NCBI GenBank assembly: GCA_012295275.1
Contig: CM022675.1
Coordinates: 2,666,001-2,730,000, forward strand
Origin: Chrysomallon squamiferum
Taxonomy: Eukaryota; Animalia; Mollusca
Length of the DNA: 64,000 nt
Direction of reading: 5' to 3'
Shown here one piece after another: positions 32,201 to 38,200 of the stretch. Both the position numbers and the translations under genes were made by a program. How positions within the stretch are numbered: the stretch's first letter is position 1; each line of letters starts with the position of its first letter. The notes beneath the pieces were generated by a model. It saw nothing but the letters and a program-made list of their open reading frames with translations. It was not told the origin of the DNA and made no database searches.

Positions 32201-35200
32201 ATAACAAGGATTGTGATAATGATTTTTTTTTTTTTTTTTTCAATCATATAACTAAATTCTGTAACAAGTTAACATTTCTATTAGTTAAATATTTGGAAAT
32301 ACTTGAAAGTAGATGTCCCACATACAGAAACAATTTGAATGCTGTTGTTGACTGAGTAGTTCTTACATCGGGTTTGTGTTGTGTTTTCAGGTGTTGATGT
32401 CTCAAAGCTGGCACACGGCACAACAGGATTCACTGGAGCGGATCTGGAGAACATGGTCAACCAGGCGGCACTGAAAGCAGCCATGGACGAAGCAGACACT
32501 GTCAGCATGGAGCACATAGAGTTTGCACGAGACAAAGTGTTGATGGGTAAGTGTGTCAACAGTAACCTTGACGAGTTAGTGTTGATAGAATTATTGATGA
32601 GTAAATGTTGATAGTAATATTGATGGTAAATGTTGATAATAATATCGATCGGTAAGTGTTGATAGTAATATTGATGAGTAAGTGTTGATGGAATTATTGA
32701 TGGTAAATGTGGATAGAATGTTGATGGGTAATTGTGTTGATAGTCAATACCATTGATGTTTCAGTGATCCTGTGATCATACACTCTGGTAGCAAAACATT
32801 CCTGAAATTTAGCAACTTAATATTTTTCTCAGATAATAAATGTTTACTACTGTTGTTGTAGTTGAAGTTGTTGTGATTTGTTTTGTGATTTCAGGCCCAG
32901 CTAAAGTGAACAAGATACAGGATAAAGAAACAAACTTACTAACAGCTTGTTGTTGCTATTGTTGTGATTTGTTTTGTGATTTCAGGCCCAGCTAAAGTGA
33001 ACAAGATTCAGGATAAAGAAACAAACTTGCTGACAGCCTACCACGAAGCAGGACACACCCTCGTCGCTCATTTCACACGAGATGCAACACCACTTCACAA
33101 AGTTACAATCATTCCTCGCGGAATGTCCCTGGGACATGTAAGTAGTATAGTAAAGTTATATCTTCATAAAGTTACAGTTAGACCTGGTGGGATGTCATTT
33201 AGACATGTAAGTAGTATAGTAAAGTTATATCTTCATAAAGTTACAGTTAGACCTGGTGGGATGTCATTTAGACATGTAAGTAGTATAGTAAAGTTACAGT
33301 TAGACCTGGTGGGATGTCATTTAGACATGTAAGTAGTATAGTAAAGTTATATCTTCATAAAGTTACAGTTAGATGGGATGTCATTTAGACATGTAAGTAG
33401 TATAGTAAAGTTACAGTTAGACCTGGTGGGATGTCATTTAGACAGTTGACCTGGTGGGATGTCATTTAGACATGTAAGTAGTATAGTAAAGTTATATCTT
33501 CATAAAGTTACAGTTAGACCTGGTGGGATGTCATTTAGACATGTAAGTAGTATAGTAAAGTAAAGTTATATCTTCATAAAGTTACAGTTAGACCTGGTGG
33601 GATGTCATTTAGACATGTAAGTAGTATAGTATAGTAAAGTTATATCTTCATAAAGTTACAGTTAGACCTGGTGGGATGTCATTTAGACATGTAAGTAGTA
33701 TAGTAAAGTTATATCTTCATAAAGTTACAGTTAGACCTGGTGGGATGTCATTTAGACATGTAAGTAGTATAGTAAAGTTATATCTTCATAAAGTTACAGT
33801 TAGACCTGGTGGGATGTCATTTAGACATGTAAGTAGTATAGTAAAGTTACATCTTCATAAAGTTACAGTTAGACCTGGTGGGATGTCATTTAGACATGTA
33901 AGTAGTATAGTAAAGTTACATCTTCATAAAGTTACAGTTAGACCTGGTGGGATGTCATTTAGACATGTAAGCAGTATAGGGTCATTCCGTGTCAAATCAC
34001 CCAATGGTTTAAACCCGACCGTCTCAGATTTTTATGAAACTTGGTATATTTGTTGACTGGGATCCCACAGCACCAAATCTGAAATTTTAGCTCAATCAGA
34101 CCAGTGGTGTGGGAGATATGGCCCACCAAATTTTGAGATTTTTGCCAAAAATGGGTGTGACCACCAACCTTAGAACCCTTATATCTCAGGAACTACTGGG
34201 CCAATCTTCATAAAATTGGTATTGTTAGAAAGGCAAAATGACAAGGATACCAAATCTGCCATTTTTGTTTAGTTTGGAAAATATTGGAGTACCTTGACCT
34301 TTTGACCTTTGCTATGACCTTGAGATGACCTTTATTGAAATTTAATCTCCCACATGTTAACTAAAACATATAAAAGTTTCCTGGGTGTAAATATAGATTT
34401 AAAAAATGCACATGCATGACAATAACACCTTTTCAGCCATTAACATCTGATTAACTAAAACCTGAATGATCAATTCTGGATGCTAGGGATCACCATCTTT
34501 CTTGATCATCGAGTAAGACATTGTAGGCCTACATGTATGCATAAAGTTCACATAAATTTGAGAGAACTAGGTGTTTCTGATGCTTAACCTTCTCACTATG
34601 TTTGTTTCAAATGCTCACTGTATCCTTCATTCCCAGACACATTCTACTGTTCTCATCACTTTCATAAAATTGGATTGTTTCCTCCTTCAATTCATTGTCC
34701 TTTCAATGGTAAAGGGTGACAAAATCAAGTATGCACACGCTCTGGGTAGGATTCAGACATTAAGATGTCATTTTACTGTTACTGTAGCTGATGCTAGTTT
34801 TTTTCTGTCTTTCATTCATTTACTGGAATGTGATAGTGAATGGAGTTTGACAGGAGTTTTGCCTAAACTCGACAGAATAGAATTCAAATCAAAGTCCTTT
34901 TCTGGGGAAACAACAACCAGCGGTTTGTCTGGCAAGTTATCACCAAATTCTCCCATTGTAATACCACCCATACTAAAGCCATCCTCTGCAGGACCTTTGA
35001 TTTCTGAAGGGTAATCAGACAGTCACAGCACAACTTGTCTCCTGGCACTAGTGTCTTTGGAGGATTTACTAAGCATTTGTAAGAGCCCATGCTAACAATT
35101 CTTAAAGATCTAGTGCGTGCTTGCTCAGGGTGGTGATTAAGGGGATCACAACAGTTTTTCTGCAATGTTGAAAATTTGATGAAAAGTTCTTGTTCATGAT

Positions 35201-38200
35201 ACTCTTGATGTCCTGTGTTTTGATCCCACTTCAAAGAGTGAGGAGTTCGACTTCCTCAGTTTTCCATACACTTCGCAACAACTCCTTTTTTATATAATGG
35301 TGTTGATAATACACATTTTCAGGAGAGTTAAAGCTGCAGTTAGCCCTGGAAGAAATAAGGATTTTCAGTATTGCCCTCACCTTCAATTCAATAGAACAAA
35401 GTCAGTGCTTTCCTAAATATGGTGGGATGTCATTTAGACATGTAAGTAGTATAGTAAAGTTACAGTTAGACCTGGTGGGATCTCATTTCGACATGTCGTA
35501 GTATAGTAAAGTTATATGTTAATAAAGTTACAGTTAGACCTGGTGGGATGTCATTTAGACATGTAAGTAGTATAGTAAAGTTATATGTTAATAAAGTTAC
35601 AGTTAGACCTGGTGGGATGTCATTTAGACATGTGAGTAGTATAGTAAAGTTATATGTTAATAAAGTTACAGTTAGACCTGGTGGGATGTCATTTAGACAT
35701 GTAAGTAGTATAGTAAAGTTATATGTTAATAAAGTTACAGTTAGACCTGGTGGGATGTCATTTAGACATGTAAGTAGTATATAGTAAAGTTATATGTTAA
35801 TAAAGTTACAGTTAGACCTGGTGGGATGTCATTTAGACATGTGAGTAGTATAGTAAAGTTATATGTTAATAAAGTTACAGTTAGACCTGGTGGGATGTCA
35901 TTTAGACATGTGAGTAGTATAGTAAAGTTATATGTTAATAAAGTTACAGTTAGACCTGGTGGGATGTCATTTAGACATGTAAGTAGTATAGTAAAGTTAT
36001 ATGTTAATAAAGTTACAGTTAGACCTGGTGGGATGTCATTTAGACATGTAAGTAGTATAGTAAAGTTATATGTTAATAAAGTTACAGTTAGACCTGGTGG
36101 GATGTCATTTAGACATGTAAGTAGTATAGTAAAGTTACAGTTAGACCTGGTGGGATCTCATTTCGACATGTCGTAGTATAGTAAAGTTACAGTTAGACCT
36201 GGTGGGATGTCATTTAGACATGTGAGTAGTATAGTAAAGTTATATGTTCATAAAGTTACAGTTAGACCTGGTGGGATCTCATTTCGACATGTCGTAGTAT
36301 AGTAAAGTTACAGTTAGACCTGGTGGGATGTCATTTAGACATGTAAGTAGTATAGTAAAGTTACAGTTAGACCTGGTGGGATCTCATTTCGACATGTCGT
36401 AGTATAGTAAAGTTACAGTTAGACTGGTGGGATGTCATTTAGACATGTAAGTAGTATAGTAAAGTTATATGTTCATAAAGTTACAGTTAGACCTGGTGGG
36501 ATCTCATTTTGACATGTCGTAGTATAGTAAAGTTACAGTTAGACTGGTGGGATGTCATTTAGACATGTGAGTAGTATAGTAAAGTTACAATTATACTTTG
36601 TGGGATGTCAGATGGATATGTACACACAGATACCGTTACATCTGTACACTAATTTGTAAAAGTAAAGTGTTGTAACAGATGTAAAAGTAAAGTCTTGTAA
36701 CCTGTGTGTATGTTCAAGTAAAGTGTTGCAAACTGTGTGTGTGTTTGCTTGTAGACGGCGTTCATTGATGAGAAGGAGGTGTTCAACAGGACCAGGTCTC
36801 AGCTCACTGCTCAGATGGACATTGCTATGGGTGGCAGAGCAGCAGAAGAACTAGTCTATGGGTTGGACAAAGTGACCACAGGTAATCCTCACCCCACCCA
36901 GTCCACCCCAGTCCACCCCAGTCCACTTTCTTCTCATCCATGAACTTCGTGTAACCACCATTCACATTTAAAATTAACTCCCAACATTTTATCATTAATT
37001 CCCAAAATTTACTTTTATCATTAATTCCCAAAATTTACCTTTATATTAATTTCCAAAATTTACCTTTATCATTAATTCCCAAAATTTACTTTTATCATTA
37101 ATTCCCAAAATTCACCTTTATCATTAATTCCCGACATTTACTTTTATCATTAATTCCCAAAATTTAATTTTATCATTTAATTCCCAATGTTTACTTTTAT
37201 CATTAATTCCCAAAATTTACTTTTATCATTAATTCCCAAAATTTACCTTTATATTAATTTCCAAAATTTACCTTTATCATTAATTCCCAAAATTTACTTT
37301 TATCATTAATTCCCAAAATTCACCTTTATCATTAATTCCCGACATTTACTTTTATCATTAATTCCCAAAATTTAATTTTATCATTTAATTCCCAATGTTT
37401 ACTTTTATCATTAATTCCCAAAATTTATTTTTATCATTAACACACAACTTTTACTGTTACCATAATACACATTTACTTTTATTAATACACAACATGTACT
37501 TTTATCATTAATTCCCAACATTTAGTTTTATCATTAATACATAACACTTACCTTGTCATTAATATTCAGCCTTCAGTTTGATCACTGATATGCAACATTC
37601 ACATTTATCATTATTTCCCAACATTTATTTTCATCATCAATTCCCAACATTTACTTTTGTCATTAATAACCAACATTGACTTTGATTCGTAAATTATATC
37701 CATTAATATTATCCATTTCTTTCTCCTCTTTGACATCCATTAATTTAAACCACAAAGTATCCACTTCATCATTTCTGTATGATATTCACCAGTTATACCC
37801 ATGTATGTCACCCATCCTGGTTCCAACACCAAACTTTCTCTGATTTCATTTTTGTATTAGTAATTTTTGTTTTTGTAGCTTTTTTCTTTCTTTTTTTATA
37901 TTTTTTTTTCTTTTCTTGTTGTATTGTTAACTTTAAATTTTGTCAGTTAATTTGATTAGACATCTAGAAGACAGTTACATGTTTTGTTTACAAAAGTTTT
38001 ATTTATTCTTCAGGTGCCTCGGATGATTTCAGAACAGCCACAGAGATTGCCACGGCGATGGTGAAACGATTTGGAATGTCAGAAAAAGTAAAAAAAACAA
38101 TGTTTGCTTGTTGTCAGTAATGAGTTTTTATTAACGTAACCTTTGTGTAAAATGTGTTGTTTAGATTGGTCAGTGTAGGTTTGACAGTAATGAGTTTTTA

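Follow-up and report, generated by a model that had tools for sequence, protein, structure and literature searches.

Minisatellites whose units reach across an exon boundary have been described in lancelet and human genes. In amphioxus, the "mirage" minisatellites of Adh3 and of the globin genes BflGb6 and BflGb9 span exon boundaries at donors or acceptors; in the available part of that report they leave regular splicing undisturbed, evolve in concert and exclude the boundary unit, and their length polymorphism has been demonstrated (PMC3087553). The 37-bp VNTR of human F7 intron 7 presents the spliceosome with competent, identical pseudo-donors, and the most upstream donor alone is reported to be used; the pseudo-donors were found functional by mutation, and some of them would give stop-free products (PMC1557585). 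The same account, in its available part, describes use of the first donor only for lamin B2 and PDGF, and use of one or two proximal pseudo-donors for the minisatellites in human CBS intron 13 and 6-16 intron 2 (PMC1557585).

Here, we describe an array of 33 units between exons 15 and 16 of a YME1L gene, within a window of 64,000 nucleotides that is the whole stretch of DNA analysed. This array is a "mirage"/F7-type boundary minisatellite, of the sort described before in lancelet and human genes, and it displays four of six features considered for that type: a boundary-spanning unit, a retained splice signal, regular splicing and concerted evolution. Unlike the amphioxus mirages as far as the available text describes them, it lies in a mollusc-like genome, and an insertion divides its 33 units into two blocks; the unit measures 69 nt, happens to be open in frame in the first two copies, and has an exon part that has diverged to 73% identity (PMC3087553). 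With F7 it has in common that the first element spans the donor, that identical pseudo-donors follow, and that the most upstream one is seen in mRNA, whereas the F7 unit holds 4 exon nt in 5-9 copies and the YME1L unit 45 exon nt in 33 copies. Pseudo-donor competence in F7 was established by mutation, whereas the YME1L copy donors are putative ones, recognised by their sequence (PMC1557585, available part). The arrays of CBS and 6-16 span a donor as well and number 15-25 units; their proximal pseudo-donors are used, whereas no such use was seen for YME1L at the resolution of contigs (PMC1557585, available part).

Host gene and array anatomy

The window is animal DNA with a GC content of 22-37%, and 38% of it is tandem repeat; its source is probably a gastropod or a related mollusc. 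The best database match of coding exon 15 is a YME1L-like protein of Gigantopelta aegis (P0001; 90% over 50 aa), which itself matches yeast YME1 (6az0) at E 9.6e-137. An exon model built by tblastn of P0001 followed by boundary checks comprises 19 exons from 20228 to 39885, of which the boundaries of exons 2 and 3 are the least certain part, and encodes a product of 737 aa that ends at its only stop and is 81.6% identical to P0001. The gene has the marks of the YME1L/FtsH M41 family, namely an AAA domain and a Peptidase M41 domain (PF01434) with HExxH, and is closest to YME1L. Features of the locus are collected in Table 1.

Table 1. Features of the YME1L exon 15 to exon 16 region
Feature	Position	Strand	Basis or remark
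Exon-15 acceptor duplicated separately (91 bp), with the boundary of the copy after 32894	32868..32985	+	use would frameshift
YME1L coding exon 15 of 19 (152 nt)	32986..33137	+	HEAGH; Pfam Peptidase_M41 E 1.3e-15; genuine donor CAT|GTAAGT after 33137
Left block, 13 units (28-74 nt), CTTCAT variant	33138..33979	+	sequence comparison
First two 69-bp units; sole copy donors (33206, 33275) both in frame and stop-free	33138..33275	+	
1.44-kb spacer splitting the array, unrelated to the units	33980..35419	.	
Right block of 20 units, the first of them partial (51-71 nt); GTTAAT and GTTCAT variants; donor decayed to GTCGTA in five units	35420..36619	+	
Terminal unit, most diverged of the array	36567..36619	+	
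YME1L coding exon 16 (TAFIDEKE...)	36755..36881	+	Pfam Peptidase_M41 E 4.4e-08; acceptor 36755; RNA contigs of X1, X3, X4

The array is far beyond chance. Its 69-bp unit is built as a first-pass annotation of this DNA had read it, from 24 intron nt, identical at all 24 positions, and 45 exon-like nt that are a diverged copy of the end of exon 15 (33/45 identical). The annotation had also stated that the copies carry the same donor as the exon, and this is so for 20 of the 33 units, which end in CAT|GTAAGT; the remainder end in GTGAGT (five), GTAAGC (one), GTCGTA (five) or, in the terminal unit, TAT|GTACAC, and one donor is lost. Overall, a CAT|GT(A/G)AG donor is kept at the end of 26 of the 33 units. 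A length of 69 nt is found in 16 of the 33, two measure 51 nt, one is partial, and 14 have lengths that are not multiples of three. The array had been drawn as one interval; the repeats are real but fall into two blocks (13 units left, 20 right) with 1.44 kb of unrelated sequence between them. No second copy of this spacer was found within the window, a target-site duplication was looked for at its ends and none was seen, nor was there a terminal inverted repeat, and its 147-codon open stretch gave no Pfam match.

Splicing at the exon 15 donor

Read-through from exon 15 is open for two units, as the first-pass annotation had it, and meets its first stop at inserted residue 65 (33330-33332). 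Splicing from the donors at 33206 and 33275 would give predicted products of 760 and 783 aa, longer by 23 and 46 residues and ending at the normal stop. On the sequence, the copy donors would indeed add one or two 23-aa copies without a premature stop, and the site of insertion is where it had been placed, with exon 15 ending 27 residues past HEAGH. The further claim of an array that keeps the frame holds for its first two units but not for the whole: 14 units are not multiples of three, and the third donor, 33328, shifts the frame, giving a stop that lies 221 nt upstream of the last junction; all copy donors after 33328 take in the stop at inserted residue 65. The open frame of the first units is itself unremarkable, as among 59409 hypothetical units of 30-99 nt that span a donor of the YME1L gene, 9936 (17%) would likewise be in frame and stop-free.

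The exon is present in five public runs, four of them RNA runs from one study and one of unrecorded kind. Four of the five were compared over exon 16 and its flanks, namely the RNA runs X1, X3 and X4 (three of the four in the study) and X5, which also covers the intron end just downstream of the array and behaves as DNA. In each of the three RNA runs one contig spans exon 16 exactly (1454, 2014 and 2497 nt, with mean word depths of 59, 43.5 and 18), and its 30 loose letters upstream are the genuine end of exon 15. No repeat-derived end before exon 16 appeared in any of these three runs, which stem from one study and whose contigs represent the majority form. Because the contigs carry the genuine exon-15 end before 36755, the majority mRNA joins donor 33137 to 36755, and regular splicing prevails at the genuine site in all three RNA runs compared, as contigs of one study. 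Exclusive use of 33137 in deep RNA-seq was the outcome that the first-pass annotation had set beforehand as speaking against its proposal; it holds at the level of contigs in all three runs, with the proviso that contigs drop rare variants and so represent major forms. Inclusion of the copies in mRNA, which a functional exon duplication or alternative-donor isoform needs, was likewise absent from the majority form in all three.

We consider it very likely that the array is an intronic minisatellite of exon-15/intron-15 boundary copies and that the assembled mRNA uses the genuine first donor, so that the copies are likely silent, neutrally drifting DNA. The spliceosome would pick the most upstream among identical donors, as the F7 intron 7 experiments showed. 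It counts against silence that the first two copy donors share the genuine 9-mer and that their products would escape NMD. A small leak may be imagined on this basis, in which a few percent of transcripts use 33206 or 33275 and yield 760- or 783-aa subunits as tolerated, functionless splicing noise. The same donor 9-mer, the kept frame and normal stop, the ordinary size of the extended exons (221 and 290 nt) and the proximal pseudo-donors employed in CBS intron 13 and 6-16 (PMC1557585, available part) all lend themselves to such a leak, which we nonetheless hold to be rather unlikely, with no junction of this sort in the contigs of the three RNA runs compared and with F7, lamin B2 and PDGF restricted to the first donor in the same source. 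Leaky use is compatible with silent, drifting copies, the sole difference being whether the leak is detectable. Since the products of the first two copies would escape NMD, a leak could be counted directly in raw reads.

Divergence of the copies and probable constraint on the exon

The copies resemble each other far more than they resemble the exon, as the first-pass annotation had noticed: mean identity among 27 copies is 98.2% (minimum 92.3%), and identity of the copies to the exon is 71.2% over the last 39 nt. Its observation that the two blocks carry different diagnostic variants is confirmed as well, with CTTCAT at the start of all nine full-length units on the left, and GTTAAT (9/11) or GTTCAT (2/11) on the right. 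These values and the long branch of the terminal unit indicate concerted evolution within the cluster to the exclusion of the boundary unit. The annotation had called for a tree of the units against the exon. Such a tree was built from 20 full-length units together with the exon and the terminal unit (22 rows; 12 short or partial units were left out, and three rows are displaced by a fixed-length cut). Left and right labels do cluster in it (0 and 1 of 500 shuffles were as low), but none of the seven inner branches is starred, so that the order of events cannot be read from the tree.

Sequence comparison supports the history that the first-pass annotation had sketched, an old seed followed by homogenisation. 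A tandem duplication of about 45 exon nt and 24 intron nt at the exon/intron 15 junction would have seeded the array, and slippage or unequal exchange may have multiplied and homogenised the copies; the 53-nt variants likely arose by deletion between two TAAAGTTA words that lie 16 nt apart. Purifying selection would keep exon 15 out of this process, homogenisation halting at the exon because conversion would alter invariant residues. Exclusion of the exon would in turn account for the contrast within the unit, which is identical over its 24 intron nt but only 73% identical in its exon part. The 1.44-kb insertion would then have split the array, after which each block may have fixed its own variants. 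The terminal unit was considered as a former exon end and this was rejected, since over the 39 nt compared it shares six derived states with the array and keeps three exon states that the other units have lost; its strong divergence would be as expected for the edge unit of an array.

Near-identical tandem units are hard to assemble, which raises the prospect that assembly errors account for part of the array, or of its number of units and its 1.44-kb interruption. We judge this highly improbable: the variants are ordered and block specific and the terminal copy is diverged, which collapse or stutter errors would not yield, and the end of the intron, immediately after the array, is covered by the DNA run X5.

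Of the 15 residues encoded by the end of exon 15, five differ in a copy: an I becomes V, a second I becomes R, R becomes G, L becomes F and G becomes R. None of these new residues is found at its position in 120 homologues, in which the exon residues occur, in the same order, 120, 112, 120, 117 and 120 times. The 12 nucleotide differences between exon and copy fall 4/1/7 on codon positions 1/2/3, a pattern that would fit a neutral copy beside an exon changing at silent sites alone. Together with the loss of frame in 14 of 33 units, these substitutions reveal no coding constraint on the copies. Spacing in this part of the protein is conserved as well, with 51 residues from HEAGH to xGGR in 90 of 92 homologues and 52 in the other two (28 of the 120 homologues, in which an anchor was missing, were dropped). 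In an AlphaFold2 model of P0001 (65-row alignment; mean pLDDT 74.8, about 90 or more in blocks here), strands are predicted at residues 572-576 and 586-589, and the exon 15 junction follows residue 586, within the second strand; an insert would split this strand, close to the active site. A strand beside the zinc pocket has been modelled as positioning substrate in yeast YME1 (bioRxiv 10.1101/189316, available part), and the predicted strand at the exon 15 junction probably corresponds to it.

It is against this background that a functional isoform has to be weighed, in which copy donors are chosen in a regulated way and the 23-aa repeat, present once or twice, comes to lie next to the active site, tuning the protease or switching it off. 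Two in-frame, stop-free units do lie right behind exon 15, the insert is predicted to repeat the strand-turn-strand of the exon, and the pocket-adjacent strand positions substrate in yeast YME1 if the equivalence of the strands holds (bioRxiv 10.1101/189316, available part). We nevertheless give this reading very little credence. The isoform is absent from the RNA contigs, and the database is silent about it, which weighs little: when the peptide of the two units was searched against proteins (residues 51-96; longer proteins), 11 candidates came up, none at E <= 10, and the peptide matched no Pfam family. The insert would bring in five residues in states that none of the 120 homologues has, at a site where length is fixed in 90 of 92; 17% of random donor-spanning units are open anyway, and the frame is gone from unit 3 on. 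On the structural model, an insertion at this site would be more apt to damage the enzyme than to tune it. The main proposal of the first-pass annotation, an insertion of 23-aa repeats into the protease domain by way of the copy donors, finds no support in the RNA contigs, the protein search or the copies' lost invariant residues.

Junction capture in a repeat-rich gene and biological meaning

Tandem repeats make up 9342 of the 17444 intron nt of the YME1L gene, and the exon 15 donor is one of several junctions with copies nearby. With a threshold of 65% identity on both sides, nearby copies were found at five of 36 junctions, namely at three acceptors (5, 15 and 18) and two donors (15 and, weakly, 14). 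Applied to 600 random intron positions and to 400 positions inside exons, the same criterion gave a copy for 57% and 1.2% of them, respectively. The nearest copies of acceptors 5, 15 and 18 lie 62, 91 and 68 nt upstream, and their use would frameshift. Junction-spanning arrays number four to five among the 15 arrays of the gene, against 1.6 expected (P = 0.06 to 0.013 under a rough chance model), a mild excess that speaks against purely random seeding and that one gene cannot settle. Donor arrays also occur on the minus strand of the window: a 57-bp array with 24 donor motifs stands behind a RhoGAP exon (Pfam E 4.9e-06), and a second, of 49/63 bp with seven motifs, lies near 50 kb. Selection for open donor arrays in multiples of three was considered and rejected, as every 57-bp unit of the RhoGAP array hits a stop and stops also occur in the 49- and 63-nt units of the array near 50 kb.

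It is conceivable, if only barely, that the first copy donor, or the first two, come into play in a particular tissue or under a particular condition, yielding YME1L subunits that escape NMD and carry a second, degenerate copy of the active-site hairpin. If true, variation in the length of the minisatellite would set how many of the subunits are altered in the hexamer of an essential mitochondrial protease. The array would matter more only if the leak were large or regulated. As it stands, the YME1L array is a further example of a known repeat type, in a mollusc-like genome. The choice of the first donor holds at majority level despite 25 further GT(A/G)AG donors and one GTAAGC donor downstream, two of which would give a stop-free product, and the array is a natural test of 5' splice-site choice, if one of modest use.

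Donor arrays outside YME1L exon 15

The array of the exon-15 donor boundary in the mitochondrial protease gene YME1L has counterparts elsewhere in the window, two of them on the minus strand. The 57-bp array behind the RhoGAP-domain exon is a second donor mirage, that is, a minisatellite whose unit spans an exon/intron boundary including the donor, and it is the less diverged; every one of its units contains a stop on read-through from the exon. The 49- and 63-bp units behind a probable 45-nt exon carry 7 CAG|GTGAG motifs in total, and read-through here likewise meets stops. Within YME1L, the final unit of a 26-bp array matches the exon-14 donor at 13/20 and 14/20 positions, and the array may represent an old, decayed donor mirage.

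Splice-boundary copies and associated repeats in the window
Feature	Position	Strand	Description
RhoGAP-domain exon	7327-7219	minus	Pfam PF00620, E 4.9e-06
RhoGAP exon with adjoining donor array	5903-7327	minus	57-bp unit; 24 donor motifs copying exon end
YME1L exon-5 acceptor copies	23529-23834		three, at 82-bp spacing, upstream of real acceptor
YME1L intron-10 minisatellite	26732-30777		4 kb; 31-bp unit
26-bp array	32578-32749		last unit like YME1L exon-14 donor (TGTTGATGG|GTAA)
Exon-15 acceptor duplicate	32868-32985		91-bp copy
1.44-kb sequence	33980-35419		unrelated sequence within exon-15 donor array
Exon-18 acceptor copies	38111-38656		five
Probable 45-nt exon	50141-50097	minus	followed by 49- and 63-bp units; whole feature 49707-50141

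Interruption of the exon-15 array

Where the 1.44-kb sequence interrupts the array, part of one repeat unit is absent, and no target-site duplication was found. Its first 400 nt, which include a 15-nt inverted pair (34030-34044 and 34201-34215), may resemble a non-autonomous transposon fragment; a Pfam search with its 147-codon open stretch returned no match. Near exon 16, a public sequencing run behaving as DNA yielded a second contig over 36716-36771 with 3 differences, suggesting an allele or another individual.

Acceptor copies in YME1L

The intron-10 minisatellite, strongly G/T-skewed, fills its intron and stops 25 nt short of the acceptor. Copies of acceptors themselves occur at three exons. 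Those of exon 5 lie 62, 144 and 226 nt from the real acceptor, the closest running into a stop, and those of exon 18 are of two ages: four, with a 70-bp unit, have diverged, and the fifth, which lies 68 nt upstream, is nearly identical. The exon-15 duplicate, identical at 20/20 positions on either side of the boundary, is predicted from its sequence to cause a frameshift if used; it exists in addition to the donor array, and both ends of exon 15 are therefore duplicated.
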